The position numbers and the translations under genes are program-made. The notes under the pieces are model-generated. The model made no database searches. It was not told the DNA's origin and saw only the letters and a list, made by a program, of their open reading frames with translations. A stretch of 64,000 nt of DNA from Heptranchias perlo (lineage: Eukaryota): the NCBI RefSeq assembly GCF_035084215.1, contig NC_090348.1, positions 14,632,001-14,696,000 of the forward strand, in the 5' to 3' direction. Shown here one piece after another: positions 15,643-55,869 of this stretch. Numbering within the stretch: the first letter of the stretch is position 1; each line of letters opens with the position of its first letter.

Positions 15643-17115
15643 TTAAACGTCAGTCAGCAGTTTGCTCTTATTCACACAATTTTGGTTTGCTACAGTGCAG
15701 TTGCCAGTTCTGAGATTTGCTTCTCTAAAATTATCTATGCTGTTGTTCACGTCTTCCTCGATCTCCATATAGTCCGACTTGCTAATAGTGGAGGAGCTGC
15801 GGCTTCGTAAATCACTGTCCGAAGCAATGTTCGGGCAGCTAACGTGCAGGTACTGAGCCTGCTCCTCCCCTTCGGTCTCCCGGTGGTAGAAGTAGTTGAA
15901 GTTGGAGACGATGACGGGCACGGGCAGGGCGATGGTCAGGACCCCGGCGATGGCACACAAGGATCCCACAATCTTTCCTCCGATGGTGATGGGATGCATG
16001 TCTCCATAACCCACCGTAGTCATGGTGACCACTGCCCACCAGAAAGCTTCTGGGATGCTGGTGAAATAGGACAACCGGTCGTCAGCTTCCGCGAAGAACG
16101 CGGCACTGGAAAACAGAATGACTCCGATAAACAGAAAAAAGATAAGCAGTCCCAGCTCCCTCATACTGGCTTTAAGAGTCTGTCCCAAGATCTGGAGGCC
16201 TTTCGAGTGCCGGGACAACTTGAAAATCCGAAATACTCGAACCAAACGGATAACTCTGAGGATGGCCAGAGAAGTGGTCTGTTCCCCGCTCTTGTTGCCC
16301 TCGGCCTCCTCTGCCAATTCAGTGCCCAGGGTGATGAAATAGGGGATGATCGCCACTATGTCAATGAAATTCATGATGTTCTTGAAGAACTCCGCCTTGC
16401 TGGGACAGGCGAAGAATCTGACTGTCAGTTCGAAGGAGAACCAGATGATGCAGAGTGTCTCCACGATAAAGAAGGGGCCGGTGAGGATGCTGGCTTTGTA
16501 GGTGATGGTGGTGTTCCCGACTTCCATCGTCCGTTCCCTGTCGTCCTTCAGTTCAGGCAGGGTCTCCAGGCAGAAGATGACGATGGAGATTAAAATGACC
16601 ATCACGGAGATGATGGCAATTCCCCTGGCTGGCCCCGAGCTCTCCGGATGCTCGAACAGCAGCCATACCTGGCGCTGGTACTCGTTCTCAGGCAATGGGC
16701 GCTCCTCCTCCCTGATGAACCCTTCGTCCTCCCGGAATTTTTCCATCGCCTCCTCGCCCAGCTCGTAGAATTTAATCTCCTCCGAGAACATCTCCAGCGG
16801 CACATTGACGGGTCTGCGGAGCCGGCCCCCCGACTGGTAATAGTACAGGATGGCATCGAAACTGGGGCGATTCCGGTCGAAGAAATACTCGTTCCGCAAC
16901 GGGTCGAAGTAGCGCATCCTCTTCTTGGGGTTTCCCAGCAGGGTGTGGGGGAATTGGGCCAGGGTCTTGAGCTGGGTCTCGAACCTCAGCCCTGAGATGT
17001 TGATGACCACCCGCTCACAACACTCGTGGTCATCGTGGTCCGGCGGGTAGCTGTCCTGAGGGTGGCCGGGCAAAGCCGAGGCTTCGTCTATGTTGTCGCC
17101 GGCGAGAACCGTCAT
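15643..17115 (-). CDS. KCNA1: Voltage-gated potassium channel Kv1.1 (Shaker-related subfamily A member 1), copy 1, 490 aa
   Basis: Kv1.1-type N-terminus ([26 protein letters not shown]), T1 domain, S4 [20 protein letters not shown] filter, PVPVIV hinge, and Kv1.1-specific C-terminus [14 protein letters not shown]; uninterrupted CDS. Confidence 0.97.
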
Positions 17116-17535
17116 CCTGCCGGCCGACGGCGTTCAGTGGGGCGATTTGGCTGGGTCCGATTCACTGACTGCTACTCCCCCGCGATCGGACATTCGGAGG
17201 CAGCACTTTGGAGGGGGTGGGGAGGACGGTTGGGGCTCGAAGGGAGAACGGGTCTAACGGATCACTCTGGGTTTTCTGGCTGATTTAACCATTGTGGGAC
17301 TCAGCACTTCAAACGGATCCAAGTGATCTCAGCAGCTCAGCAAATTCCGTGGCGTTTCTTCCCCTCAGGACCAAAGTGCTGCGGAATACAAAAGGTTAGC
17401 ATAAAACAAAACTGAACTTAACATAAATGGGCAAATGTTGGACCCTATGTGAATGGAGCTCATGCACTGAAGAGTTTTCCAGCAGCCCGGACCTCGCGTT
17501 CTTACATCTTCGCAGAAGGCAGCGAATGGTTTTCG

Positions 17536-18831: not shown

Positions 18832-20996
18832 CAGAATCAAAGAAAGGTTGTAACACGGAAGGAGGCCACTCGGCCCACCGAGTCCGCGCTGGCTCTGTGC
18901 AACACCAATCCAGCTCGTCCCACTCCCCCGCACTATCCCCATAACCCTGCATTTTTTTCCTTTCAAGTATTTATCCAGTTCCTTTTTGAAGGCCATGATT
19001 GAATCTCCACCACCCCCTCAGGCAGTGCATTCCAGATCCTGACCACACCCTGCCTGGAAAAGTTTGTCCTCATGTCACCTTTGGTTCTTTTGCCAATCAC
19101 CTTAAATCTATGTCCTCTGGTTCTTGACCCTTTCACCAATGGGAACAGTTTCTCTCTATCTACTCTGTCTAGACTCTTCATGATTGTGAATACCTCTATC
19201 AAATCTCCTCGCAACCATCTCTGTTCCATGGAGAACAATCCCAGCTTCTCCAGTTTATCCACGTAACTAAAATCCCTCATCCCTGTAATCATTCTGGTAA
19301 ATCTCTTCTGCACCCTCTCTAAGGCCTTCACATCTTTCCTAAAGTGCAGTGCCCAGGACTGGACACACTACTCCAGTTGTGGCCAAACCAGTGTTTTAGA
19401 AAGGTTCATCATGACTTCCATACTTTTGTACTCTATGCCTCTATTTATAAAGCCCAGGATCCCGTATGCTTTTTTAACCGCTTTCTCGACCTGCCCTACC
19501 ATCTTCAACGATTTGTGCACATAGACCCCCAGATCTCTCTGTTCCTGTACCCCTTTTAGAGTTGTGCTCTCCAGTTTATATTGCCTCTCCTCGTTCTTCC
19601 TACTGAAATGTATCACTTCACATTTTTCTGCGTTAAATTTCATCTGCTACGGTGTCCGCCCATGTCACCAGCCTGTCTATATCCTCTTGAAGTCTATCAC
19701 TATCCTCCTCACTGTTCGCTACACTTCCAAGTTTTGTGTCATCTGCAAATTTTTAAAATTGTGCCCCCTACACCCAAGTCCAAAGTCATTAATATATATC
19801 AAGAAAAGCAGTGGTCTCATCACCGAACCCTGGGGAACACCACTTGTACACCTCCCTCCAGACCAAAAAACAACCTTTCACCACCACTCTCTGTTTCCTG
19901 TCACTTAGCCAATTCTGTATCCATGTTGCTACTGCTCTCTTTATTCCATGGGCCGCAATCTTGATGATAAGCCTACCATGCGGCACTTTATCAAACGCTT
20001 TTTGAAAGTCCATATCAACTGCATTGCCCTCATCTACCCTCTCTGTTAACTCATCAAAAAACTCTATCAGGTCAGTTAAACATGATTTTCCTTTAACAAA
20101 TCCATGCTGGCTTTTCCTAATCAATCCAACTCATCCAAGTGACTGTTAATTCTGTCCCGGATTATCGTTTCTAAAAGTTTCCCCACCACTGAGGTTAAAC
20201 TGACTGATCTATTGTTGCTGGGTTTATCCTTACACCCTTTTTTGAAAAAGGGTGTCGCATTTACAATTCTCCAGTCCTCTGGCACCGCCCCCGTATCTAC
20301 GGATGTTTGGAAGATTATGGCCAGCATCTCCACAATTTCCACTCTTACTTCCCTCAGCAACCTAAAATGCATCCCATCCGAACCGGGTGATTTATCTACT
20401 TTAAGTACAGCTAGCCTTTTTAATACCTCTTCTTTATCAATTTTTAGCCCATCCAGTATCTCAACTACATCTTCCTTGACTGAGACTCTGGCAGCATCTT
20501 CTTCCTTGGTAAAGACAGTTGCAAAGTACTCATTTAGTACCTCAGCCATCCCCTCTGCCTCCATGAGTAGATCTCCTTTATGATCCCTAATCGGCCCCAC
20601 CCCTCCTCTTACTACCCATTTACTGTTTACATGCCTGTAGAAGGCTTTTGGATTCCCCTTATGTTGGCCATCAGTCTATTCTCATACTCTCTCTTTGCCC
20701 CTCTTATTTCCTTTTTCACTTCCCCTCTGAACTTTCTATATTCAGCCTGGTTCTCACTTGTGTTATCAACCTGACATCTGTCATACACCCCTTTTTTCCA
20801 TTTCATCTTACTCACTATCTCTTTTGTCATCCAGGGAGCTCTGGCTTTATTTGCCCTATCTTTCTGCCTCATGGGAATGTGCCTAAACTGTACCCGAACC
20901 ATCTCCTCCTGAAAGGACGCCCTCTGTTCAATTACGGTTTTGCCTGCTAAACTTTGATTCCAATTTACCTGGGCCAGATCTGTTCTCATCCCATTG
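18832..20996 (-). mobile_element. 5'-truncated CR1-clade LINE, specific to unit 1
   Basis: Broken ORF2 pieces (KSQHGFVKGKSCLTDLIEFF..DFQKAFDKVPH; KFNAEKCEVIHF; LERVQKRFTRMI); inserted into cagtta|aaaagaaaatgcgc, which is empty in units 2 and 3. Confidence 0.93.
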
Positions 20997-21555
20997 AAAA
21001 GAAAATGCGCTAAAAACGTAAACATGGGATTCCTGCGTTTTGTTGGCCTCCAATTTGAAAGCAGCAAAAACAGAGCATCTGCGTAAACCTCAAATGGTTC
21101 TGGAAATTGATCGAGCCTGACAATTAACAGAGAAAGGACCGTCACTGGACTCGGGAGTTAATGTTTCACCACTTATGTAATTTGACTGATGCCAATCCAC
21201 ATTACCAGAAGGCGCTGTTCACAGTTCCATTTGCCCTAATACTGAAGTTCGCAACCTCCTACACCACAACATGTGTATTTAATTAGAGCATTCTTAATTC
21301 AAGGCTGTTTACTGGCAAATTTATCCTCACTGTTGATAAAACTTAGAACATGAACTGTAGAGCAAAAAATTAGAATCAGCTGGTGCAACTCCTTGGTTGT
21401 GAATTTGATGGTCAGCCACCAGGTGTGTTTAGACAGTGAGTTTATCTGCCCAAATGCTCCCAACAGAAAAAGGACATAAACTGTAACATAACCAGGGCTG
21501 CATTAGTGCATATGAGACACATTCCTAGGTACTTCGGTCAAATATGGGGACCCCT

Positions 21556-24602: not shown

Positions 24603-27600
24603 CTAAACAGAGCAACTGAGCCTACCACTAAAACGTGCAGCTTACTAATTGTCTTTGGCAAGAAAAACAATAGTAAAGGAACAGCGCAGAGTGAAACAAA
24701 CTAAAGCTTACACAATTAGGCTTAAGTATTAGCTTGCTCAGATCCAAATTAGAGGCAATCTGAGCAACAAAGGGTCGCACTTTTCAAATATTCTTTATAA
24801 ATGAAGATATCCAAGGGAAAAGTGATTCTGCATTCCGGTTCTAGCCTCCATTAGTCCTTACAAGGTAGCATCTCTTGAATTCAACCAGTGAAATCATTAC
24901 CCACTGTGCATTTTGACCAAAATGAAGCATTTTTGTCGGTGATGGATTATGTTTTGGGTTTTTCATGGCTGGTCATGGTACACACATGGTTAGAGTCAGA
25001 TACTGTTAGAATAATTCTGATCAATTCTACCATTTTATTAGAAATATAATCTGTCCATTTAAAGTCTTTCACAGTTGCCTTAGCTGTGTTTTCTTTCACT
25101 TCATCACAATATTTTGGTTTATCGTGGCTACAATTATCTTCATAGAAGAAAATAAATGACTGCATTACGATTATGGGGGTGGGGGGGGGGGTTATGTATC
25201 ACAATATGTTGATATATCGAAGTATTAAGAGATCCTTAAACAGGAAATGAACAAGCCTGTCAACACAGCTGTTTTAAAATGATATCACTGATAAATGACA
25301 GTAGTAATACTATGGCTATTCCAACTTGAATGCCCTGGACCTGATGGTACACAGGCTGCAAAGCCTCATTTCACTTTTAAGATCAATATACCAGTTAAGG
25401 CAATTTGTGCTGAATTTTAAAGTGCATTTTTATGCTTAATTAACATTATATTTGACACTACTTAGGAATTAAGATTTTTTTTCTACTTCAGCAACCAATA
25501 CTTTCATGTCAAACAAGTTGTTAACCAACAATGTGCACAGCCTCAAAAATGCCACCTCAACCACACCAGAGACGCCTTGACTTCATCAGGTGCTAATTCT
25601 ACTTTTTACACATATGACTGAAGTGAATCAAAAATCTGAAATGAATAAATTATGGGATGTTTTTGCTACATCCACATATCTACAAAGTATCAGACTAAGA
25701 CAGTGAGATTAAGTTTTACTTGTAATCCTGACACATTTAAAATCGAAACACTGTCACTTATTGCGGGGCTGAATTGAAATGTGCTCATCAGTAATGTGTT
25801 GTGGGGCATCACGGGCACCATTTTGTCTCCTGTTCTCTCCTTTTTTTATTGTTCGTTTTCTAGACCAAAATCAACCCAAATTCTACCTCAGAAACAAATG
25901 AGAGAGATCCTCTTTAGAATGATATTGCTTTGATGAATATTATTCAGTGCAAACCACTTTAAACTGGGCAAAGTCACTTTACAAAACATTACACCAAGAC
26001 AGTCATTCTTGGTATATTGAATTGCTTCATTTTCACTACTGTTATTAATGGTTCTATTGTAAATAGAGAAGAGGCTCTTTCATTACTCTGTTCACAACCA
26101 GCCATCTTGTATACATTCAGGCCTATGTACAATACGTTTGCCAAGTTGGTCCAGGATTAAGAATATCTACCAAAACGGTATAACCAGAAAGACATCAGAT
26201 TTTCTCTCTATTCATATCTTGTACTCAGCTGTAATGATTACAAATAAACATCACCAAACCCTAACCCATCTCACTGGTTTTTCGAACCTTCATTGTCAAA
26301 GAAACTGCTGCAGCACGCTTCTCAAGTTACATGCAGATAAACGTGAACCTAAGGCGCAATTTCCCAAAAACCAGAAAATCAATTGCTAAAGTAAACATGA
26401 GCTGCCAGAAGCCACGTAGATTTTATCAAAGCAGTTCTGCAGCATTGGATCGTTTTACCCTGTTTATTGAGTGCAACATTCAAGTCATTTAACGCAGGGG
26501 AAAGTTTTCTCCTAGCTCACGGTTTATGTGATGTAGAAGGGTCAGAATAACCAGAGTATGGGTGGATTACATAATCTATTTGAGGAAGTTAATGCCCTGT
26601 TGCCAACAGCAAATGCAGTTCATCAAGAGTTTTTCTAAATTCCTGCGTGTAACTTTCATTTATACTCTCAGTTCAGTTGTATCAATTAATTCAGTCATGT
26701 AGTCTTGGAGTGACTTCATTCTTTGTGAAATATTTTTCTTTTGCATTCCTTAAATTTCAAAGTAAGTACAATTTATAATCAAGTGCCACAATTCCTTTTG
26801 GAATTTAATCATGTCTTGATCTATCTGTATCAGTCTGTATTATCCAACGACGACAAACTGTCGTTTGCAATAATCACATCAATATCCCAGGTAGATCCCT
26901 CTGTCCGAAAACAAGCATGATGTTAATTACAAAAATGCAATTCTTGATTCGCCAGGTCTTCGGAAATTGCCATATTGTTTTCCAAATATTGTTGTATTCA
27001 TCTCATGATCTCTTTGAGAAATTCTGGCTTGAAGTAGTATGTCAGAGCGAGCGAGTTGTGATAGGTTTCTGCATAACAGCTAAGGACGGTGATAGGCTAA
27101 ACGAGAGAAGTTGGCAACATTTTTTGTAAGCATTGAAACTAACTTGCAAGTGTTGCTCCAAAGAAGATAAAGGATATTGCAGAAGAACCTACACTTAATT
27201 AGCTGTATATGTGAATTCAGAGTTACCAGAAAAAGAATCCCCTCAGCCTGGAATCACGCAAGAAACTGTCCTGTTCATCAAGCTAAACTGAGGTAGTCTG
27301 CTGAGGAAACCGCATTTTCTTATTTGGAACATTGCAGATAATGAAGGTGAGCAGAAGGAGACGGAGTTAACATTCTTCTGTGTTTTTCAGTTTAGCACTT
27401 TAACACCTCATGTTGATGTCATTAAAATCTGTTCAATTCGTTAGCAGGTTGTGAACATTGATCTCAGTGTAGTTTTTTGTTAAAATCTAATTTGATAGGG
27501 ATATCAAAGAAGTTCCAAGTAAGATCATTCATCAGGAAGCTCTTGCACAGCTGCAATGCCCAGTTGCAAAGGTGTTCTGCATTTCCTCCGGATCTCTCAC

Positions 27601-29244
27601 CAGCTGGTTTAAATCTTGTCACCTTCAGAACTGTGTACAAACATCTGAGCTGCTTTTTCCACCAACTTTTTTGCCAAGATAACTTTCCGTTGGCCCTCGC
27701 AATTAAAGATTTCCCCTCAGACTGTCGGACAGAAATGAGGTGGTACATTTTCACGGTGTTACAGATTAAGATGATTTCTGTGGACGTCAGGTCATTCAAC
27801 TTTTCTTTGTACACGGAGGCACTTCCAACAGTCCGGGAGCGTGAGGATTTAAAAGGCACTAGCAACTAACTACCTCATTTACTGAGTTTCTGCAGTAAAG
27901 TAGAGGGAAACCAAAAAAAAAACAAATGTCTTATCTCAATCGGGATAGATTAGGAAATGAGTTGCAACTTGGAGGCATCATTTATATATATTTTACATTT
28001 ACATTCTGCTAAAATGCACAAAGGCATGCTTTCTTATCAGTGTGATTAGTTCCATTTTAAATTAAATCGTATCATATATAGATATACACATTATCTAACC
28101 TGCTTTCATTTGGTTCAGAGATTTCCCAGAAGTAAATGGGCTCTGTTGCATCATATTTTGAGCGTTGTTAGGACACGAACCAACTCATTTCCCTGAAATT
28201 CTACAGGAACATCATCAGGTCCCTCAATGTTCTACCTTTACTGATTAAATCTCTTTTGTAACCTGACGTCATGCATAAGTTATAGTGGGTTACATGTTAG
28301 CCTTCCCAAAGAGGCCATAATATTAAGTAGTTAAACATGCTATGAAAAGTTACTCTACCCCATACAAGTTAACATTCAGGCTATGAGTGCTTCGAAGTAA
28401 TACATTAAATAACAAGCCATTCATTGCACCTTTGGTGAAAGCAAATGAGAACTGACTCTCCAGAAATATAAATTAAAACGCAAACTTAATTCCTGTTATT
28501 TGAGGTAATGTCCCAGGCATGCCACGACAAAAGTCAATAATAAATATCAAGGCATGCTATTATTTATGGGATTTTCTTTTTGAATTACGTTTCTCGCATC
28601 AAATTGGGGACAGGGGAATTTTACTTTCAGTCCTGGAAGCACACGAATTGCACTATCTGCAAAATTGTAACACTGCAGATGTTTTCAGCAGATACGTTGT
28701 TACATCATAAAGTTCAGGCAAAAGCAGCCGCTTGTTTTATTTGATAAAGGACGGTGGTGTATTTTTCAGAGGAACTAAACCGTCACATCACCTCTCGCAA
28801 TGAAATACTCATCAGTAGTGCGAATACTGCAGACGCTTGCATGTTTCACCAGAACGCAGGAATATGAAGCATTTGGTTATTTGTTTGTTATTTGGATGCA
28901 CGGTGCAGCTTGCAAAATTGCACCTTAACACATGCATTGGTATTTGTAAATGAACTGAGAAAAACGTCCATTCGAGTTTGGTGAACGGGTACAAGTCCAG
29001 GTTTATAAAAAGGTACCTACGGATGCTCACGAGAAGGGATCGGGAAATGTTTTCCCTCGTTACCCAGTTGGAGAAAGAAAGCCATTTAAAAATAAATGAA
29101 AATATACCTTCCACGTAATTCTGAAAGCTTATTTTGCTGAGCATAACTGCAATGCCACAACTCATCAACGAGGTCAACAAAGCAATACATGGGTCAGTAA
29201 CAGTGTCTGGAAAGCATGACTGCCGTCACTGAGCCCGTGGCTCT

Positions 29245-30717
29245 TTAAACATCAGTCAGCAGTTTGCTCTTATTCACACAGTTTTGGTTTGCTACAGTGC
29301 AGTTGCCAGTTCTGAGATTTGCTTCTCTAAAATTATCTATGCTGTTGTTCACGTCTTCCTCGATCTCCATATAGTCCGACTTGCTAATAGTGGAGGAGCT
29401 GCGGCTTCGTAAATCACTGTCCGAAGCAATGTTCGGGCAGCTAACGTGCAGGTACTGAGCCTGCTCCTCCCCTTCGGTCTCCCGGTGGTAGAAGTAGTTG
29501 AAGTTGGAGACGATGACGGGCACGGGCAGGGCGATGGTCAGGACCCCGGCGATGGCACACAAGGATCCCACAATCTTTCCTCCGATGGTGATGGGATGCA
29601 TGTCTCCATAACCCACCGTAGTCATGGTGACCACTGCCCACCAGAAAGCTTCTGGGATGCTGGTGAAATAGGACAACCGGTCGTCAGCTTCCGCGAAGAA
29701 CGCGGCACTGGAAAACAGAATGACTCCGATAAACAGAAAAAAGATAAGCAGTCCCAGCTCCCTCATACTGGCTTTAAGAGTCTGTCCCAAGATCTGGAGG
29801 CCTTTCGAGTGCCGGGACAACTTGAAAATCCGAAATACTCGAACCAAACGGATAACTCTGAGGATGGCCAGAGAAGTGGTCTGTTCCCCGCTCTTGTTGC
29901 CCTCGGCCTCCTCTGCCAATTCAGTGCCCAGGGTGATGAAATAGGGGATGATCGCCACTATGTCAATGAAATTCATGATGTTCTTGAAGAACTCCGCCTT
30001 GCTGGGACAGGCGAAGAATCTGACTGTCAGTTCGAAGGAGAACCAGATGATGCAGAGTGTCTCCACGATAAAGAAGGGGCCGGTGAGGATGCTGGCTTTG
30101 TAGGTGATGGTGGTGTTCCCGACTTCCATCGTCCGTTCCCTGTCGTCCTTCAGTTCAGGCAGGGTCTCCAGGCAGAAGATGACGATGGAGATTAAAATGA
30201 CCATCACGGAGATGATGGCAATTCCCCTGGCTGGCCCCGAGCTCTCCGGATGCTCGAACAGCAGCCATACCTGGCGCTGGTACTCGTTCTCAGGCAATGG
30301 GCGCTCCTCCTCCCTGATGAACCCTTCGTCCTCCCGGAATTTTTCCATCGCCTCCTCGCCCAGCTCGTAGAATTTAATCTCCTCCGAGAACATCTCCAGC
30401 GGCACATTGACGGGTCTGCGGAGCCGGCCCCCCGACTGGTAATAGTACAGGATGGCATCGAAACTGGGGCGATTCCGGTCGAAGAAATACTCGTTCCGCA
30501 ACGGGTCGAAGTAGCGCATCCTCTTCTTGGGGTTTCCCAGCAGGGTGTGGGGGAATTGGGCCAGGGTCTTGAGCTGGGTCTCGAACCTCAGCCCTGAGAT
30601 GTTGATGACCACCCGCTCACAACACTCGTGGTCATCGTGGTCCGGCGGGTAGCTGTCCTGAGGGTGGCCGGGCAAAGCCGAGGCTTCGTCTATGTTGTCG
30701 CCGGCGAGAACCGTCAT
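29245..30717 (-). CDS. KCNA1: Kv1.1 copy 2, 490 aa, protein identical to copy 1
   Basis: ORF translation identical to copy 1; only two synonymous differences seen, both near the C-terminus (GAC/GAT, AAT/AAC). Confidence 0.97.
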
Positions 30718-31172
30718 CCTGCCGGCCGACGGCGTTCAGTGGGGCGATTTGGCTGGGTCCGATTCACTGACTGCTACTCCCCCGCGATCGGACATTCGGA
30801 GGCAGCACTTTGGAGGGGGTGGGGAGGATGGGTGGGGGCTCTAAGGGAGAACGGGTCTAACGGATCACTCTGGGTTTTCTGGCTGATTTAACCATTGTGG
30901 GACTCAGCACTTCAAACGGATCCAAGTGATCTCAGCAGCTCAGCAAATTCCGTGGCGCTTCTACCCCCCTCAGGACCAAAGTGCTGCGGAATACAAAAGG
31001 TTAGCATAAAACAAAACCGAGCTTGACATAAATGGGCAAATGTTGGACCTTATGTGAATGGAGCTCATGCACTGAAGAGTTTTCCAGCAGCCCGCACCTC
31101 GCGTTCTTACAACTTCGCAGAATTGTAAACAATTTTACAACACCAAGTTATAGTCCAGCAATTTTATTTTAA

Positions 31173-31213
31173 ATTCACAAGCTTTCGGAGATTTTCTCCT
31201 TCCTCAGGCAAAC
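31173..31213 (-). ncRNA. Minimal type I hammerhead ribozyme motif (left PLE arm)
   Basis: Minus strand GUUUGC-CUGAGGA-A-GGAG-AAAAU-CUCC-GAAA-GCUU-GUGAAU: conserved core, stem II, palindromic AAGCUU stem III and a 6-bp stem I with G-U pairs. Confidence 0.7.
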
Positions 31214-31838
31214 GTTTCAAGAGCTCCTTGATGCCTACGCATTTATACATATTGAACAATACATGGTGTTTACAGACTGCCCCTGCAACTGCCCGTTGCC
31301 AAGGCAATCACCGTGTTCAGACAGAGAGGTGTCACCTGCAGAACCCCCGAATACACATTCAACAAAAAAACAAACAGGGAAAAAAAACAGAGAAAAAAAA
31401 AACACAGAGAGAGGCAGAAACATCCGGAAGGCAGAGAGAGCCAGCAAATGACCCATTATATTAAAAACAGATAACATTTGTTCGCTGGTGGGGTAACGTG
31501 TAGCGTGACATGAACCCAAGATCCCAGTTGAGGCCGTCCTCATGGGTGCGGAACTTGGCTATCAATTTCTGCTCGACGATTTTGCGTTGTCGTGTGTCTC
31601 GAAGGCCGCCTTGGAGTACGCTTACCCGAAGGTCGGTGGATGAATGTCCATGACTGCTGAAGTGTTCCCCGACTGGGAGGGAACCCTCCTGTTTGGCGAT
31701 TGTTGTGCGGTGTCCGTTCATCCGTTGTCGCAGCGTCTGCATGGTCTCGCCAATGTACCATGCTCTGGGGCATCCTTTCCTGCAACGTATGAGGTAGACA
31801 ACGTTGGCCGAGTCACAGGACTATGAACCACCCACCTG

Positions 31839-32216
31839 GTGCATGGTTCATACTCCTGTGACTCGGCCAACGTTGTCTACCTCATACGTTGCAGGAAAGG
31901 ATGCCCCAGAGCATGGTACATTGGCGAGACCATGCAGACGCTGCGACAACGGATGAACGGACACCGCGCAACAATCGCCAAACAGGAGGGTTCCCTCCCA
32001 GTCGGGGAACACTTCAGCAGTCATGGACATTCATCCACCGACCTTCGGGTAAGCGTACTCCAAGGCGGCCTTCGAGACACACGACAACGCAAAATCGTCG
32101 AGCAGAAATTGATAGCCAAGTTCCGCACCCATGAGGACGGCCTCAACCGGGATCTTGGGTTCATGTCACGCTACACGTTACCCCACCAGCGAAAAATTTA
32201 TCTGTTTTTAATATAA
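31839..32216 (+). pseudogene. Truncated PLE ORF, GIY-YIG endonuclease domain only (mirror copy at 31461-31830 on minus strand)
   Basis: VVYLIRC..C...YIGET motif with downstream R, H, E and GLN residues; no RT domain present. Confidence 0.85.
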
Positions 32217-32458
32217 TGGGTCATTTGCTGGCTCTCTCTGCCTTCCGGATGTTTCTGCCTCTCTCTGTGTTTTTTTTTTCTCTGTTTTTTTTCCCTGTTT
32301 GTTTTTTTGTTGAATGTGTATTCGGGGGTTCTGCAGGTGACACCTCTCTGTCTGAACACGGTGATTGCCTTGGCAACGGGCAGTTGCAGGGGCAGTCTGT
32401 AAACACCATGTATTGTTCAATATGTATAAATGCGTAGGCTTCAAGGAGCTCTTGAAAC

Positions 32459-32499
32459 ATTTGCCTGAGGAAGGAGAAAATCTCCGAAAGCTTGTGAAT
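32459..32499 (+). ncRNA. Minimal type I hammerhead ribozyme motif (right PLE arm)
   Basis: AUUUGC-CUGAGGA(32465-32471)-A-GGAG-AAAAU-CUCC-GAAA(32486-32489)-GCUU-GUGAAU, followed by AATAAA at 32504-32509. Confidence 0.7.
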
Positions 32500-32617
32500 T
32501 TAAAATAAAATTGCTGGACTATAACTTGGTGTTGTAAAATTGTTTACAATTGTCAACCCCAGTCCATCACCGGCATCTCCACATCACATCTTCGCAGAAG
32601 GCAGCGAATGCTTTTCG

Positions 32618-32727
32618 CTGGAAAAAAAACAGCTGCAGTATTAGGATAGGAGGGAGGAGGAGGAGGAGCAGGAGGAACTCTGCAACTGCAGGGTTCACTT
32701 GGAGCGAAGTGAAAAATAAACCCTTAC
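32618..32727 (-). other. Predicted 110-nt 5'UTR intron of KCNA1 copy 2
   Basis: Same donor, branch and acceptor signals as copy 1. Confidence 0.65.
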
Positions 32728-33547
32728 CTGATAAGTAAAGGAGGACAAAATGAACAGTGCAGGAATGCGACCCAGCCTCGGAGCAATGCAAAGCTTTCCT
32801 GCGTACTTCTACCTCGCTTTACTATGGATATCGGTTTACAGCTTTGTGTGTATGAGATCTGCTGAAATATTAATAGCCTATATTATACTGTACTGACACC
32901 ATTTACAAGTCATTTGTTCCTGACGTTGGTTGCAGCAAGCAGCGGTCTAGGTTAAGAATGAAAACTCGCCGGCGCTGTTTTAAAACACCACCAATTAAAG
33001 TGCAGAGAAAAAATACGTTAAACTGTGCACACGGACTTCATGGCAGGTTACGGAAAAAGATCTTCTGGTACAGCATCCTGGCCCCTTGTTGAAGGCTCAT
33101 GTGGTGCAGTGTGGAAGACTGAATACATTAAAGCCAAGCGAGCTGGTCATCCCCTAGCATTGCAGTATCAGCAAAAAATAAATAAGAGCAGTGTTTTGTG
33201 GAGTGTAGACAGGGCACCGTTCTCCGGCCAGTAACCTCACAGCTCCAGCAAAGCAGGTCCCACATTACAGTGAGAACAGCCGCTTCCTAAAAAAAATCTC
33301 TACTATTTCTCACATACGAAAAATTGAGATATTTTAGACGCAGTGCAGACAACCCGGTAAAATCCTCAGTGCACACGACGCCGTGCACACTCGCAAAAAA
33401 AAACGCACCATAAACATGAAAACTGCTGCATCATTTGGTTAGATTTTACGACAATGTTCCTTTGACTGCAGCTCACTGTAGCAAACCTTCGAACCCAATC
33501 ACTGCAGCGCGAGTTCAGCCGGCAGGTACAGTGTTACTGTACGGAGA

Positions 33548-33654
33548 TATATATGCAGCAAGCAGCCATACAACAGCCCACATTAATTGTAAACAGTTAC
33601 AGGGATGGACTGTCTTACAGTCTTTTCAATGTTTAATAGGCCAATGCCCCGCCC
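33548..33654 (-). promoter_or_regulatory. Putative core promoter of copy 2
   Basis: TATATAT 33548-33554, CCAAT 33641-33645, GC box 33646-33654. Confidence 0.4.
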
Positions 33655-34445
33655 TTTATTTGCTCAAGATTAGCAAAACAGATCAATTGTTCCCATCACA
33701 TAATATTCTGTTGACAGTTTACAATTAAGTGTTGGACATAATCTGATGATGTTTTAACTGAAGTATCGGCAACTTGAGAAATACGATTTTGTTGGTGTAT
33801 CTATAAAAAACTCTCATCCTCTCCCCGTTTATATTATATTCCCACAATTTTAACTAAACTTGAAAGAACAAACGCGCAGTCAGTTAAAAAGAAAATGCGC
33901 TAAAAACGTAACCAGGACATTCTTGCGTTTTGATGGCCTTCAATTTGAAAACAGCGAAAACAGAGCATCTGCGTGAACTTCAAATGGTTCTGGAAATCGA
34001 TCGAGCCTGACAATTAACAGAGAAAGGGCCGTCACTGGACTCGGGAGTTAATGTTTCACCAGTTATGTAATTTGACTGATGCCAATCCACGTTACCAGAA
34101 GGCGCTGTTCACAGTCCCATTTGGGGTTCGCAACCTCCGACACCACAACACGTATATTTTATTTGAGAATTCTTAATTCAAGGCTGTTTACTGGCGAATT
34201 CTTCCTCACTGTTGGTAAAAGCTTAGAATGTGAAGTAGAGAAAGAAATGATTACCAGCTGCTGCAACTCCTTGTTTGTGAATTTGATGGTTAGCCATTAG
34301 GTCTGTTTCTACAGTGAGTTTATATGACCACAGTGTGTTAACTCTAAATGCTCCGAACAGAAATAAACTATATAAACTGTAACATAACCAGAGACGTATA
34401 AATGCACGGGAATACACGGCCTATGCCTCGGAAACTCGGCCTCTT

Positions 34446-42189: not shown

Positions 42190-43662
42190 TTAAACATCAG
42201 TCAGCAGTTTGCTCTTATTCACACAGTTTTGGTTTGCTACAGTGCAGTTGCCAGTTCTGAGATTTGCTTCTCTAAAATTATCTATGCTGTTGTTCACGTC
42301 TTCCTCGATCTCCATATAGTCCGACTTGCTAATAGTGGAGGAGCTGCGGCTTCGTAAATCACTGTCCGAAGCAATGTTCGGGCAGCTAACGTGCAGGTAC
42401 TGAGCCTGCTCCTCCCCTTCGGTCTCCCGGTGGTAGAAGTAGTTGAAGTTGGAGACGATGACGGGCACGGGCAGGGCGATGGTCAGGACCCCGGCGATGG
42501 CACACAAGGATCCCACAATCTTTCCTCCGATGGTGATGGGATGCATGTCTCCATAACCCACCGTAGTCATGGTGACCACTGCCCACCAGAAACCCTCTGG
42601 GATGCTGGTGAAATAGGACGTCCGGTCGTCAGCTTCCGCGAAGAACGCGGCACTGGAAAACAGAATGACTCCGATAAACAGAAAAAAGATAAGCAGTCCC
42701 AGCTCCCTCATACTGGCTTTAAGAGTCTGTCCCAAGATCTGGAGGCCTTTCGAGTGCCGGGACAACTTGAAAATCCGAAATACTCGAACCAAACGGATAA
42801 CTCTGAGGATGGCCAGAGAAGTGGTCTGTTCCCCGCTCTTGTTGCCCTCGGCCTCCTCTGCCAATTCAGTGCCCAGGGTGATGAAATAGGGGATGATCGC
42901 CACTATGTCAATGAAATTCATGATGTTCTTGAAGAACTCCGCCTTGCTGGGACAGGCGAAGAATCTGACTGTCAGTTCGAAGGAGAACCAGATGATGCAG
43001 AGTGTCTCCACGATAAAGAAGGGGCCGGTGAGGATGCTGGCTTTGTAGGTGATGGTGGTGTTCCCGACTTCCATCGTCCGTTCCCTGTCGTCCTTCAGTT
43101 CAGGCAGGGTCTCCAGGCAGAAGATGACGATGGAGATTAAAATGACCATCACGGAGATGATGGCAATTCCCCTGGCTGGCCCCGAGCTCTCCGGATGCTC
43201 GAACAGCAGCCATACCTGGCGCTGGTACTCGTTCTCAGGCAATGGGCGCTCCTCCTCCCTGATGAACCCTTCGTCCTCCCGGAATTTTTCCATCGCCTCC
43301 TCGCCCAGCTCGTAGAATTTAATCTCCTCCGAGAACATCTCCAGCGGCACATTGACGGGTCTGCGGAGCCGGCCCCCCGACTGGTAATAGTACAGGATGG
43401 CATCGAAACTGGGGCGATTCCGGTCGAAGAAATACTCGTTCCGCAACGGGTCGAAGTAGCGCATCCTCTTCTTGGGGTTTCCCAGCAGGGTGTGGGGGAA
43501 TTGGGCCAGGGTCTTGAGCTGGGTCTCGAACCTCAGCCCTGAGATGTTGATGACCACCCGCTCACAACACTCGTGGTCATCGTGGTCCGGCGGGTAGCTG
43601 TCCTGAGGGTGGCCGGGCAAAGCCGAGGCTTCGTCTATGTTGTCGCCGGCGAGAACCGTCAT
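42190..43662 (-). CDS. KCNA1: Kv1.1 copy 3, 490 aa, differing by L348T and A357G
   Basis: Translation as copies 1/2 except [18 protein letters not shown] versus [18 protein letters not shown]. Confidence 0.97.
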
Positions 43663-44085
43663 CCTGCCGGCCGACGGCGTTCAGTGGGGCGATTTGGCTG
43701 GGTCCGATTCACTGACTGCTACTCCCCCGCGATCGGACATTCGGAGGCAGCACTTTGGAGGGGGTGGGGAGGATGGGTGGGGGCTCTAAGGGAGAACGGG
43801 TCTAACGGATCACTCTGGGTTTTCTGGCTGATTTAACCATTGTGGGACTCAGCACTTCAAACGGATCCAAGTGATCTCAGCAGCTCAGCAAATTCCGTGG
43901 CGCTTCTACCCCCCTCAGGACCAAAGTGCTGCGGAATACAAAAGGTTAGCATAAAACAAAACCGAGCTTGACATAAATGGGCAAATGTTGGACCCTATGT
44001 GAATGGAGCTCATGCACTGAAGAGTTTTCCAGCAGCCCGCACCTCGCGTTCTTACATCTTCGCAGAAGGCAGCGAATGCTTTTCG

Positions 44086-48504: not shown

Positions 48505-51160
48505 ACATAAGAAGATACTACATAAGAAATTGGAGCAGGAGTAGGCCATATGGCCCCTACTCCTGCTTTATCATTCAAGAAGATCATGGCTGATCTTCAA
48601 CCTCAACTCAACTTTCCCGCCCTATCCCCACATCCCCTGATTCTCTTCGTGTCCAAATATCCATCGATCTCAGTCTTGAATATACTCAATGACTGAGCAT
48701 TCACAGCCCTCTGGGGTAGAGAATTCCAAAGATTCACAACCCTCTGAGTGAAGAAATCTTTCCTCATCTCAGCCTTAAATTGCCAATCCCTTATCTTGAG
48801 ACTGTGACCCGTAGGGCTAGACACTCCAGCCAGGGGAAACAGCCTCTCAGCATCTACCCGGTCAAGCCCTCTAAGAATTTTATACATTTCAATGAGGTCA
48901 CCTCTCATTCTTCTAACTCCAGACAATATAGGCCCATTGTACTCAATCCCTCCTCGTAGGACAGCCCTCTCATTCCAGGAATCAATCTAGTGAACCTTTG
49001 TTGCACCGTCTCTAAGGCAAGTGTATCCTTCCTTACGTAAGGAGATCAAAACTATACACTACTCCAGGTGTGGCCTCACCAGAGCCCTATATAATTGCAG
49101 GAAGTCTTTACTCTTATACTCCAGCCCCCTTGCAATAAAGGCTAACATATCATTTGTTTTCCTAATTGCTTGCTGTACCTGCATGTTAACTTTCTGTGAT
49201 TCATGTACAAGGACACTCAAAACCCTTCTCACTACCCACATTTCTTAGTCTCTCACCTTTTAAAAAATATTCTGCTTTTCTGTTCTTTCTACCAAAGTGG
49301 ATAATTTCACATTTCGCCACATTATACTCCATCTGCCATCTTCTCACCCACTCTCTTAACCTGTCCATATCCCTTTGCAGTCTCTTGGCATCCACCTCAC
49401 AGCTTACTTTCCCACCTAGCTTTGTATCATCAGCAAACGTGGATACATTACACTCGGTCCCTTCATCTAAGTCATTAAACTATATTGTAAACAGCTGAGG
49501 CCCAAACACTGATCCTTGCGGCATCCCACTAATTACAACCTGCCAACCCAAAAATGACCCGTTTATTCCTACTCTGTGTTTTATTTAACCAATCCTCAAT
49601 CCATGTTAATATATTACCCCCTTTTCGCATCCATTAACCAATCCTTAATCCATGTTAATATATTACCTCCAATTCACATCCATTAACCAATCCTTAATCC
49701 ATGTTGATATATTACCCCCAATCTCATGAGCCCTAATCATTTGTAACAATTATTTATGTATCGATTACCTTTTGAAAATCCAAATATACTACATTCACTA
49801 GTTCCCCCTTATCCACTCTGCTAGTTACACCCTCAAAAAAATTCTAATAGAGTCATCTAACAAAATTTCCCTTTCAGAAAACCATATTGTCTCTGCCTAG
49901 TCATATTATGATTTTCTAAGTGCCCTGGTACTATGCCCTGAATAATAGATTCTAGCATTTTCCCTACTACTGATGTCAGGCTAACTGGCCTAAAGTTCCC
50001 TATTTTCTCTCGCCCTCCTTTCTTGAATAGCAGAGTTACATTTGCTACCTTCCAATCCACAGGGACCATTCTAAAATCTAGGGAATTCTGGAAGATCAAA
50101 ACCAATGCATCCACTATCTCTGCAGCCACCTTAGGATGTAGGCCATCAGGTCCAGGGGATTTGTCAGCTTTTAGTCCCATTAATTTCTCCAGTACTTTTT
50201 CTTTAGTAATCTTTAAGTTCCTCACTCTCATTAGACTGTTGGTTCCCCACTATTACTGTTGTTTTTTTTTGTTGTCTTCTGTTAAGACAGATACAAAATA
50301 TTTGTTTAACATCTCTGCCATTTCCTTATTCCCCATTATTTTTTCTCCTGTCTCTGCCTCTAAGGAACACACGTTTACTTTCGCTAATCTCTTCCTTTTT
50401 ACATACTTGTAGAAGCTCTTATGATCTGTTTTTATATTTCTTGCTAATTTACTCATTCAATTTTCTCCCTCTATCAAATTCTTAGTCATCCTTTGCTGAT
50501 TTCGAAAACCCTTCCAATCCTCAGGCATACTACTCTTTTTGGCAACATTGTAAGCATCTTTTTTTAATCTAATACTATCCTTAACTTCTCGAGTTAGCCA
50601 TAGTTGGATCATTTTCCCTGTGGAGTTTTATTCCTCAAGGGACTATGTATTCTTTGAGAATTATGAATTTTAAAAAAAAGTTCACCATTGCTTATCTACC
50701 ATCATATCTTTTAATCTAATTTCCCAATCTATCTTAGCCAACTTGCCCCTCATACCTATGTAATTGACTTTGTTTAAAATTAAGCCCCTAGTTTTGGACT
50801 TAACATCATCATTCTTAAATTCAATATGAAATTCTATCATATTATGATCACTCTACCCAGAAGGATCCTTAACTATAAGATTACTAATTAACCCTATGTC
50901 ATTACACAATACTAGATCTAAAATAGTCTGTTCCCTCGTTGGTGCCTCCATATATTGTTCTAGAAAACTGTCTCGAATGCATTCCATGAACTCGTCATTC
51001 AAACTGTTTTTGCTAATTTGGTTTGCCCACTCTATATGAAGGTTAAAGGCCCCACGATTATTGCATTACCCTTGTTACATGCTCCTCTAGTTTCCTGATT
51101 TATACTCTGTCCAACATTATAACTGTTGCTAGGGGGCCTATAAACTACTCTCACCAGTGT
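48505..51160 (-). mobile_element. Degenerate CR1-clade LINE
   Basis: 3' end cataagaaattggagcaggagtaggcc; ORF2 fragments (KSPGPDGLHP, WQMEYNVAKCEIIHFG, RRMRGDLIEMYK). Confidence 0.9.
49585..49720. repeat. 49-bp tandem triplication inside the CR1
   Basis: ttaaccaatcct(c/t)aatccatgtt(a/g)atatattacc at 49585, 49634 and 49683. Confidence 0.85.
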
Positions 51161-51164
51161 TTCC

Positions 51165-52650
51165 ACTTTCCAGCACTTGGTCCGTAGCCTTGTAGATCAC
51201 AGCACTTCAGATGCACATCCAGATACTTCTTAAATGAGTTGAGAGTTTCTGCCTCTACCACCCTTTCAGGCAGTGAGTTCCAGAACCCGGCCACCCTTTG
51301 GGTGAAAAAAATCTTTTCTCACTCCCCTCTAATTCTTCTACCAATCACTTTAAATCTATGCCCTTTGGTTATTGACCTCTCTGCTAAGGGAAATAGGTCC
51401 TTCCTATCCACACTATCTATGCCCATCATAATTTTGTACACCTCAATTAAATCACCCCTCAGCCTTCTCTGTTCCAAAGAAAACAACCCCAGCCTATCCA
51501 ATCTTTCCTCATAGCTAAAATTCTCCAGTCCTGGCAACATCCTCGTAAATCTCCTCTGTACTCTCTCTAGTTCAATTACATTCTTCCTGCAATGTGGTGA
51601 CCAGAACTTTACACAGTACTCAAGCTGAGGCCTAACCAGTGCTTTATACAGTTCCAGCATAACCTCCCTGCTCTTATGTTCTATGCCTCGGCTAATAAAG
51701 GAAAGTATCCCATGTGCCTTCTTAAGCCCTTTATCTATCTGTCCTGCTACCTTCAGGGATCTGTGGACATGCACTCCAAGGTCCCTTACTTCCTCTACAT
51801 TTTTTAGTATCCTCCCATCTGTTGTATATTCCCTTGCCTTGTTTGCCCTCCCCAAATGCATTAACTCAAACTTATCCAGATTGAATTCCATTTGCCACTT
51901 TTCTGCCCATCTGACCAGTCCATTGATATCTTCCTGCAATCTACAGCTTTCCTCCACACTATCAACCACACAGCCAATTTTTGTATCATCTGCAAACTTC
52001 TTAATCATGCCCCCTATATTTAAGTCCAAATCATTAATATATTTCACAAAAAGCAAAGGACCTCATACTGAGCCCTGTGGAACCCCACTGGAAACAGCCT
52101 TCCAGTCACAAAAACATCCATCAACCATTACCCTTTGCTTCCTGCCACTGAGCCAATTTTGGATCCAACTTGCCACTCTCCCTTGGATCCCATGGGCTTG
52201 TATTTTTTTGACCAGTCTGCCAAATGGGACCTTGTCAAAAGCCTTGCTAAAATCCATGTAGACTACATCAAATTACCCTCATCGACCCTCCCCGTTACCT
52301 CCTCAAAAAATTCAATCAAGTTAGTCAGACACAACCTTCCCTTAACAAATCCATGCTGACTGTCCTTGATTACTCTGTGTCTTTCTAAGTGACGGTTTAT
52401 CTTGTCCCTCAGAATTGATTCCAATAATTTGCCCAGCACAGAGGTTAGACTGACTGGCCATAATTACTTGGTCTATCCCTCGCTCCCTTTTTACACAATG
52501 GTACAACATTAGCAGTCCTCCAATCTTCCGACACCACAGCTGTATCCAGTGAGGATTGGAAAATGATGCTATTTCGTCCCTTGCTTCTTTTAACAGCCTG
52601 GGATACATTTCATCCAGCCTGATGATTCATCTACTTTCAAAGATGCTAAT
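51165..52650 (-). mobile_element. Second CR1-clade LINE fragment (RT domain)
   Basis: DFSKAFDKVP, SGVPQGSV, YINDL..KFADDTK, LERVQRRFTRML in ORFs 51319-52257. Confidence 0.92.
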
Positions 52651-53977
52651 TTTCTGTCCCTTGTTATTTCTTAGCTCCACCTATATTAGGAAAGGTGACC
52701 AAACACTTGGTCAAAGAGGTAGATATAATTTTTTCATTTTATTCCCTGAAAATGGGCAAAACAAATTTGAATTTCTCCCTCAAAATGCCTAACCCTAATG
52801 TAACATTAACATTACTGAGATTTTACTGCTGAATTGGACACTCTTAGCAATAGCATCACAGTAGGTCTTGACCTGCAAAGGTGGGTAAGATACCAACTCT
52901 CCCACTGTCCTTCTAAAATAAATTAGAGACAGATGGAGGAGCAATAACTCAAGTGCTGGAGTGTGATAAACTTGGTGAAGAACCTTAGATCAGCCCACTC
53001 ACAAAAAGTGCTCAGTGACTACGTTATGTGAATCCAATACAAGAGGGGTAATTATGCAATCCTACCCTCACAGTGGGGAACTGTGCTCACATGGAGCATG
53101 GGTTTAAAATAAGGCTACTTCTGCGACGCCCAACTCTGAGCGCAACTTTCTGCTGAGATTGCAAAATTGCTCCATCAGGCCCTGATTTGTTTACTTTATC
53201 CAGAACATATCGTTTATGACAATATCTTCTGAAAACATTGTAAATATGGAAGGGTTGATATTAATTATCCAACATACCCTTCAGAAATAGAAAATAAAGG
53301 AAACAGCAGAAAAAGACTCCCAGCCACAACAAATCATCCCTTTTTGGTAGATCTGAACCTCGCCATCCTTCTTTCTCACCAGTGTGAACAATTTGCCAAT
53401 ACCTATTTTATCAAAACATGCAGACAGGGATTAGTAAGGAAACTGTAGGCGAGTTAGTCTTACTTCAATTGTCGGTAAGCTACTGAAGTTTCTAATACAG
53501 GATGGAATTACCAAGCACTCGGAGAAAACCAAGTTAATCAGGGCCAGTCAGCAATGATTTCTAAAAGGCATGTCATTCTTTGAAGACATAACAGAGGGGA
53601 AAGTAACAGAAATGCAGTAACTGTGGTTTATGTGAATTTTCAAAAAACGTTTCATGAGATCATGTTAGCGGATTTCTCTCATTACTGTCGCAGCTATAGA
53701 TTGTTAATCCATCAATAACAACTTCCGCTTGATTCTAGCCCAAGTGGTTATAAAATAGCAAGTTTAATAGAATGACTTATAACAGAGTTGCACTGCAGCT
53801 GTCTTCAACATTACATTCAACAGTACTATAGTTATAATACAACTGTCTACAGCTTACATTAATGAAAAGCAACCAATACAACCTGACCTGTCCACAAATC
53901 CAGGTGGATCAGACCTGACCTTTGCAGACTGCCTGTGGCAATGGACTTCCGACCGGCCTCTCGAGAGCTCTAACTTT

Positions 53978-55450
53978 TCATACAATCATAGAATGGTTAC
54001 AGCACAGGAGGCCGCCTATTGGCCCATCGAGCCTTTGCCGGCTCTTCGTAAGAGCAATCCAGTTAGCCCCATTTGCCTGCTCTTTCCCTGTAGCCCTGCC
54101 ATTTTTTTTCCTTCACATATTTATCCAATTCCTTTTTTAAAGCTATGATTGAATCTGCTTCCACCACCCTTTCAGGCAGCACATTCCAGATCATAACTAC
54201 TCGCTGTGTAAAAATTTTTTCCTCACATCGCATTTGGTTCTTTTGCCAATCACCTTAAATCTGTGTCCTCTGGTTCTCGATCCGCCAATGGGAACAGTTT
54301 CTCTTTATTTACTTTATCTAAACCAGTCATGATTTTTGAACACTTAGAAGTAAGAAACATAAGAAATAGGAGCAGGAGTAGGCCATCAGCCCCTCGAGCC
54401 TGCTCCGCCATTCAATAAGATCATGGCTGATCTGATCCTAACCTCAAATCTAAATTCATGTCTAAATTCATGTCCAATTTCCTGCCCGCTCCCCGTAACC
54501 CCTAATTCCCTTTACTTCTAGGAAACTGTCTATTTCTGTTTGAATTTATTTAATGATGTAGCTTCCACAGCTTCCTGGGGCAGCAAATTCCACAGACCTA
54601 CCACCCTGAGTGAAGAAGTTTCTCCTCATCTCAGTTTTGAAAGAGCAGCCCCTTATTCTAAGATTATGCCCCCTCGTTCTAGTTTCACCCATCCTTGGGA
54701 ACATCCTTACCACATCCACCCGATCAAGCCCCTTCACAATCTTATATGTTTCAATAAGATCGCCTCTCATTCTTCTGAACTCCAATGAGTAGAGTCCCAA
54801 TCTACTCAACCTCTCCTCATATGTCCGCCCCCTCATCCCCGGGATTAACCGAGTGAACCTTCTTTGTACTGCCTCGAGAGCAAGTATGTCTTTTCTTAAG
54901 TGTGGACACCAAAACTGTATGCAGTATTCCAGGTGCGGTCTCACCAATACCTTATATAACTGCAGCAATACCTCCCTGTTTTTATATTCTATCCCCCTAG
55001 CAATAAACGCCTTCTTGATCACCTGCTGCACCTGCATACTAACTTTTTGATTTTCTTGCACTAGGACCCCCAGATCCCTTTGTACTGCAGTACTTTCCAG
55101 TTTCTCGCCATTAAGATAATAACTTGCTCTCCGATTTTTCCTGCCAAAGTGCATAACCTCACATTTTCCAATATTGTATTGCACCTGCCAAATCTCCGCC
55201 CACTCACCCAGCCTGTCTATATCCCCTTGATATCAAATCTCCTCTCAACCATCTCTGCCCTAAGAACAACCCCAGCTTCTCCAGTCTACCCATGTAACTG
55301 AAGTCCCTCGTCCCTGGAACCATTCTAGTAAATCTTTTCTGCACCCTATCTAAGGCCTTCATGACCTTCCTAAAGTGCGGTGCCCAGAATTGGACACAAT
55401 ACTCCAGTTGTGGCTGAACCAGTGCTTTATAAAGGTTCAACATAACTTCC
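53978..55450 (-). mobile_element. CR1 3' fragment interrupted by a younger CR1 (~54344-55229)
   Basis: Outer element breaks at gatttttgaacac and resumes at atatcaaatctcctctcaacc; inner element has its own 3' end gaaacataagaaataggagcagg and ORF 54546-55184. Confidence 0.85.
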
Positions 55451-55869
55451 TTCTGGGAGGGAGCATGCCCTATCTTTATACTATTTGGCTGTGTTGTTCT
55501 ATGTGTTAGCACCACTGGTCTTATCTCATGGTCATAAATCATCCCATTGTGCTGACTCTCCAAAAACTACCAAGGATTGTCTTAGTGTTTACATAGCCTT
55601 TCCCCGTTATCAGGTCTTAGTATGTTTATATTAGGTTAGGACAAGCTGTCTCTTGAATCTTACTGTTTTTCACTATTCTAATGCCTCAGCACTCTTTCAA
55701 TGACCTCTTGGGTTTCTGTAAGTTATTTTCCTCACAGTGATGCTGACCTTTGCCCTCCTACGTACACCTGCCCTCTTGCTAAGATGCAAGACACTAAGCG
55801 AACCAATATTTTCTATGCTTATTTTAAACCATCTTCTTACATATAAGAGTCTTATGGCAAAAGTAATGG

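Follow-up and report, generated by a model that had tools for sequence, protein, structure and literature searches.

A Penelope-like fold-back insert in the 5′ region of one of three tandem KCNA1 copies of the shark Heptranchias perlo

Results

The window, that is, the whole stretch of 64,000 nucleotides analysed here (Heptranchias perlo, contig NC_090348.1, positions 14,632,001 to 14,696,000), contains three units in tandem (11459-45855), which are about 13 kb long and each have an intact open reading frame of 490 amino acids on the minus strand (Table 1). The encoded protein carries the domains BTB_2 and Ion_trans, and over the first 391 residues it shares 91-93% identity with KCNA1-named proteins of four other cartilaginous fishes. 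For copy 2 a perfect reading frame had been claimed in the first-pass annotation, and its coding sequence is indeed intact. All copies differ at 11 residues at which the four other cartilaginous fishes agree. Six of these are located around the pore, namely 339, 347, 348, 356, 364, and 374 (about 29596-29703 in copy 2). Residues 347, 348, and 374 align to the mammalian residues A352, E353, and Y379, which the available part of PMC3721222 names as the binding site of a peptide blocker. Judged from the alignment, these outer-pore changes would suggest an altered blocker sensitivity or gating. The protein of copy 3 differs from that of copies 1 and 2 only at L348T and A357G, which amounts to four nucleotide changes in two codons (42593-42621) within a nearly identical tract of 5.3 kb; diversifying selection on the outer pore of copy 3 is possible. 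KCNA1 is expressed in the electroreceptors of shark and skate, as stated in the available parts of two reports (PMC11979771; 10.1101/274449). Among titles and the beginnings of abstracts, with most of the subscription literature outside this search, we found no publication on such a KCNA1 triplet. To us the triplet with its altered outer pore looks more interesting than the insert to which we now turn.

Table 1. Features of the KCNA1 triplet and of the insert upstream of copy 2 (window coordinates)
Feature	Coordinates	Strand	Remarks
KCNA1 copy 1 CDS	15643-17115	-	empty site 17504-17517
KCNA1 (Kv1.1) copy 2 CDS	29245-30717	-	intact, 490 aa; protein identical to that of copy 1
KCNA1 copy 3 CDS	42190-43662	-	empty site 44054-44067
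Homogenised tract of copies 2 and 3	27413-34159		5270 nt without insert, 10 differences
Candidate acceptor B, near-perfect branch point	30984-31007	-	first exon base 30983, downstream of insert; prediction
Left TSD	31109-31122	+	mismatch to empty site at 31112
Inverted arm, 710 nt, tail-less	31121-31830	-	element-sense on KCNA1 (-) strand
Mirror hammerhead-like core	31179-31207	-	sole core in sense on KCNA1 strand
Turn: 4-nt inverted match (31827-31830 / 31844-31847) around 13-nt spacer	31827-31847		native element coding sequence
C-terminal GIY-YIG endonuclease remnant, 129 aa, no RT	31827-32216	+	Pfam and relatives
Donor-like site in hairpin loop, 8/9	31830-31838	-	first intron base 31835; prediction
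Direct arm, 708 nt: end of endonuclease ORF and 3′ pLTR region	31844-32551	+	
Minimal type-I hammerhead-like core	32465-32493	+	pattern match, direct arm
One-sided tail, 34 nt	32552-32585	+	3′ side of stem-loop in element RNA
Right TSD	32586-32599	+	on the minus strand ends on GT of the empty allele's weak donor-like site
Candidate acceptor A	32618-32645	-	first exon base 32617; prediction
Candidate 5′UTR donor, 8/9 consensus	32722-32730	-	first intron base 32727; prediction

The insert upstream of copy 2 has a total length of 1463 nt. With self-BLAST the stretch 31121-32551 matches its own reverse complement over 1433 columns at 98.7% identity, and the alignment of the two arms contains 5 substitutions and two single-base indels. 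Both analyses reproduce what had been noticed beforehand, two long arms with a 13-nt spacer and few mismatches. The right-hand extension of 34 nt was located as well, and the TSD of 14 bp was found with one mismatch (13/14 identical). Inverted arm and left TSD overlap by 2 nt. In KCNA1 copies 1 and 3 the paralogous target site is single and empty. No other inverted pair in the window exceeds 117 nt at 80% identity. The stem-loop which includes the tail (32500-32585) folds with a z-score of -2.85, and none of 200 shuffles folds equally well.

The insert is a dead, 5′-truncated Penelope-like element, which is joined head to head to an inverted copy and has a one-sided tail. Its endonuclease remnant matches PF01541 of Pfam (E = 2.5e-4; 21.7 bits, just below the curated cut-off of 22.6). 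Over 90% of the query it shares 92% identity with residues 504-642, the C-terminus, of P0001, a protein with RT and endonuclease. The search for protein relatives of the remnant gave 49 matches among 1929 candidates. The close relatives P0001 and P0010 carry the RT domain PF00078 ahead of the endonuclease, and the nearest named relatives are from Heptranchias perlo itself (P0004, 99% over 78% of the query). In the window, tblastn detected no RT part of the element, and no second copy of the element was found there. The insert thus lacks the region with RT and linker by which the Penelope/Poseidon clade, which has no Zn-finger-like linker motif, is told apart from Neptune and Nematis. Many annotated shark isoforms are chimeras of host and Penelope sequence, which enter the element near the same endonuclease motif and leave it near the same point; this suggests recurrent exonisation or annotation artefacts.

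The GIY-YIG match, the relative with RT and endonuclease and the published architecture agree with the first assignment as a Penelope insertion with an inverted 5′-truncated segment. In the EN+ Penelope-like insertions described in the available parts of PMC8557442 and PMC3846280 (Pen2a_Av in the latter), an inverted 5′-truncated copy likewise typically adjoins the 5′ end, and one end bears a tail of 30-40 bp, which measures 34 nt here and is present at the right end only. A small palindrome at the junction, a short TSD, and a GIY-YIG domain at the C-terminus are also common to these cases and the present one. Unlike in these cases, however, the arms of our insert are truncated at the same point, which yields a near-perfect palindrome of 710 bp without RT, and the insertion hit a channel gene in its 5′ region. 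The TSD has 14 bp here versus 8-10 bp in the rotifer examples. The element Poseidon of Anolis carolinensis (PAc), as far as described in the available part of PMC11167929, is similar in that a hammerhead motif is found near the element end, where our insert has a hammerhead-like core, and the tail lies in an AC-rich stem-loop; the likeness is one of described features, and the present copy encodes no functional protein. The architecture of the insert is already published and the insert itself is ordinary. A metagenome scan gave two loci (L001 and L002) from 156 candidates. The marine contig L001 contains at 523-1000 the endonuclease end of a distant Penelope element, which has a comparable hammerhead-like motif and tail and is flanked by different AT-rich sequence. 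Neither locus is informative for the DNA of the present family.

Helices I and II of the hammerhead-like core fold, with an energy no better than that of shuffles, and helix III is short and palindromic as described in the available part of PMC4209133. Rfam gave no hammerhead match at E values up to 5 between 30700 and 33900. Three matches to miRNA-type hairpins in this region are all below the gathering scores and are a mere effect of the fold. Cleavage of the KCNA1 RNA by a ribozyme is unlikely, with one motif in sense which would be paired inside the hairpin. According to the same source, as far as available, a single minimal hammerhead motif gave no cleavage (PMC4209133).

The KCNA1 gene of vertebrates has an intron in the 5′UTR. 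We scored splice sites on the minus strand by consensus patterns. Acceptor A meets the rule with 11 pyrimidines out of 12. Acceptor B has a near-perfect branch point 18 nt upstream and is present in all three KCNA1 copies (30983, 43928, and 17378). When the 393-nt leader was shuffled 3000 times, the strict pattern of acceptor B arose once, and the 128 kb of both strands contain it at one other site, but this pattern was chosen only after the motif was seen. The loose acceptor rule is matched in 249 of 3000 shuffles and 46 times in the window, including two matches within each intronless CDS. Thus, motif scans alone cannot settle whether the insert is exonic. An exonic position had been proposed in the first-pass annotation, and two elements of this proposal stand, the acceptor-like end at 32618 and the ATG at 30717, which is 391 nt from the left TSD. 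The exonic position as such is a prediction, with the competing acceptor 30983 downstream of the insert.

The donor-like site at the insertion point scores 6/9, a score shared by 850 of 6835 GT sites (at least 6 in 1102), and would define an exon of 30 nt. The insertion leaves two weaker versions of this split site, both below 6. Inside the insert there are donor-like sites of 7-8/9 at 32042, 31835, 31625, 31335, and 31311, and the loop donor 31835 belongs to the 37 of 6835 GT sites with a score of at least 8. Counted from 32900, the leader would contain 2 AUGs on the predicted route to acceptor B and also 2 on the predicted route via the 30-nt exon and the donor of the upstream TSD, 20 on the predicted loop-donor route, and 37 if the insert is retained; the same model predicts 6 in an empty copy. 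According to these models, the insert-retained route alone places the hairpin in the mature mRNA. The putative second intron shows no significant excess of AUGs (p = 0.07), and AUG density does not separate the splice models. By title and beginning of the abstract, no publication on the 5′UTR structure of KCNA1 was on point. A scan for bacterial promoters gave no match and is irrelevant to this DNA.

The flanks within the triplet are diverged by about 2-14% per 500-nt bin, and the genes are homogenised. Copy 2 is marked by a 3′UTR variant at 29211, and copy 1 by a diverged 3′UTR. A tract with sharp boundaries is common to copies 2 and 3, and outside of it the duplicates are 6-9% diverged. Copy 1, which is free of the insert, is nearly identical to the other copies in the CDS as well as upstream of it, and its divergence peaks at the insertion site, with 10 substitutions in 310 nt versus 2 in about 920 nt upstream. 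The arms of the insert are more diverged than the tract (5/708 versus 5/3797, p = 0.012; p = 0.27 for non-CpG changes only), and two of the three substitutions derived in copy 2 are less than 100 nt away from an insert junction (p = 0.008, post hoc). The counts are small, and they hint at an insert which is older than the last homogenisation and which shields its flank. Part of the homogenisation may be due to assembly polishing. In the 5′ non-coding region of copy 1, two homogenised stretches enclose an island of divergence of 300 nt (17227-17529); the branch point and the acceptor within this island are unchanged.

Discussion

The turn of the palindrome is informative on its formation. For the first codon of the spacer, Thr is found in 16 of 17 motif-bearing relatives, the Val of the spacer is found in 17 of 17, and the codon before this Thr is Asp or Asn in all 17 and a stop in the window. 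Since the relatives continue through the spacer in frame, the spacer is native and not foreign, and the stop in place of Asp or Asn means that the collinearity with the element ends at 31827. The four nucleotides 31827-31830 are common to the native element sequence and the inverted arm, which is the signature expected if the 3′ end of a cDNA folds back. As a DNA hairpin the turn would have 8 pairs and -4.4 kcal/mol. As 44 of 200 shuffles do as well, such a hairpin is possible but not special.

We suggest that the insertion could have occurred as follows. The endonuclease would have made a cut at the target with a stagger of 14 nt. Reverse transcription would have started at the end of the tail and halted after 759 nt. 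The 3′ end of the cDNA could then have folded back on the 4-nt inverted match and copied itself up to the boundary of the tail, and finally the self-copied end would have been joined to the other target end via the 2-nt overlap. Fold-back priming would fit both the native spacer and the 4-nt match at the turn. Self-priming has also been inferred from palindromes at inverted junctions (PMC3846280, available part).

Alternatively, two reverse transcriptions might have been primed from both nicks on two RNAs, one tailed and one tail-less, with the cDNAs joined head to head via the 4-nt match. We consider this unlikely. It would account for a tail on one side only, and in the available part of PMC11167929 the Poseidon protein of the anole cleaves both strands and extends them, starts at two sites which bound the tail, and is a predicted dimer. 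The tail maps there between the two RT start sites inside a stem-loop rich in AC. Independent cDNAs, however, need not match in length, and here the 13-nt loop is the only difference between the arms, as fold-back directly predicts. We therefore favour fold-back priming for the equal lengths of the arms. The final sequence is the same under both routes and cannot separate them. The centre of the spacer (31833-31841) is a 4-bp palindrome around one base and encodes Leu in the window versus Gln in the four H. perlo relatives which cover the site; either a point change or a strand flip at the centre of the loop may account for this difference.

The best explanation overall, and on balance a probable one, is that a Penelope-like fold-back insert, located upstream of the coding sequence of KCNA1 copy 2, is spliced out. 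In most transcripts of copy 2, acceptor B (30983) would be joined to the donor 32727 or to that of the upstream TSD copy. The hairpin of 710 bp would be confined to the pre-mRNA and would possibly be edited there, the mature leader would match that of the other copies, and the insert would be near neutral. The presence of acceptor B in all three copies and the rarity of its strict pattern in shuffles argue for this splicing, as do the leaders to B with their 2 AUGs versus 6 under the acceptor-A model in an empty copy, and the intact CDS of copy 2. Against it, acceptor A is equally textbook and closer to the donor, the strict pattern is post hoc and its loose form common in shuffles, and the donor at the insertion site reaches merely 6/9, with its TSD-derived versions below 6. 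The CDS could also be kept by gene conversion, so that its intactness says little on expression. By our judgement of the predicted sites, removal of the insert is somewhat favoured, the full hairpin in the mRNA is improbable, exonisation of one arm more so, and any other outcome the least expected. The effect of the insert on copy 2 is probably small.

It is rather unlikely that acceptor A is the last acceptor used. The whole insert would then be part of the 5′UTR, and the hairpin together with 37 leader AUGs might block translation, attract ADAR or Dicer, and silence copy 2. Acceptor A and its pyrimidines do fit the rule, the retained insert would fold with 97% of its bases paired in an AUG-laden leader, and a loss of copy 2 could be buffered by the two other copies. 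However, acceptor B and several good donor-like sites in the insert must all be ignored, and a leader with 6 AUGs is implied for the empty copies. Silencing requires that the insert is kept in the mature mRNA, and acceptor B and the internal donors, which the first-pass annotation overlooked, would offer routes by which all or half of the hairpin is removed.

Less likely again is a mixed route which uses acceptor A and then splices to acceptor B from a donor that lies either within the arm transcribed first or in the loop (31835). One arm would be exonised without any hairpin, and the next donor would be weakened by the insertion. With up to 20 AUGs in the leader, copy 2 would be down-tuned by splicing and not by double-stranded RNA. 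The loop donor with its score of 8/9 is located right at the hairpin turn, the TSD terminates on the GT of a donor-like site, and the annotated shark proteins P0004, P0025, P0039, and P0046 join host exons to the element family at recurring points. These chimeras are in element-sense orientation, however, whereas the first-transcribed arm is antisense; moreover the chimeric proteins are annotation models and the splice sites are predictions. The route would also need an internal exon of 782 nt. Internal exons of this size are unusual.

Three near-identical KCNA1 copies, one of which has a 710-bp hairpin in its 5′ region, are a natural experiment on whether Penelope palindromes alter how a host gene is spliced, edited or translated. 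Should copy 2 be silenced or re-edited by the hairpin, this would clearly exemplify a Penelope insertion which sets the dosage of an ion channel after duplication. If the insert is spliced out as we suggest, it would be one of many such stubs in shark genomes.

By analogy, the hairpin might be a copy-specific regulator in the triplet, which switches 5′UTR splicing at the split donor or recruits ADAR2 for Ile-to-Val recoding and also acts as a local conversion barrier; we hold this for very improbable. If ADAR2 were recruited, copies 1 and 2 would yield different channels from an identical coding potential. As with inverted Alu pairs and editing inducers, the structure would be long and double-stranded in the pre-mRNA, and the pre-mRNA of the mammalian orthologue holds an ADAR2 recoding site which can be boosted by an added stem (PMC4053975, PMC5654063; available parts). 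In the portions at hand, recoding of mammalian Kv1.1 can rise when a stem is added in cis (PMC5654063), and the enrichment of editing sites around edited Alus extends to 1-2 kb (PMC4053975). The Ile is kept at the codon equivalent to the mammalian editing site. The hairpin is 1586 nt away from this codon, however, whereas the natural inducers of these two sources are at 32-230 nt. In two other sharks Kv1.1 editing was not detected, according to the available part of PMC8659423.

The proposal that the palindrome acts as a cruciform or break hotspot and drives conversion between the copies fares slightly worse still and is hardly tenable. Long palindromes are fragile, and the insert does lie inside the tract of copies 2 and 3, at 3696 and 1560 nt from its ends. 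But copy 1 is homogenised without an insert, and least so at the insertion site. Repair of a break with an empty paralogue as template would remove the insert, yet it persists within the tract. The substitutions near the junctions and the divergence of the arms fit a conversion barrier better than a hotspot.

The two arms decayed independently. In the left arm there is a Trp at a position which is Arg in 14 of 18 relatives, and a stop within the Ser-Tyr-Ser motif; the right arm has lost two bases compared with both relatives which share the same ending. Three of the five substitutions between the arms are CpG transitions (p = 0.007), as expected when methylated DNA decays. An artefact of assembly or of fold-back reads is therefore extremely improbable, since unique flank returns on either side with TSD and one-sided tail, and each arm has private changes relative to the element family, with CpG transitions prominent among the substitutions. 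Between and beyond the KCNA1 units, at 18835-21157 and 48603-55566, there are decayed RT-like ORF fragments, which by eye we take to be LINEs of the CR1/L2 type.
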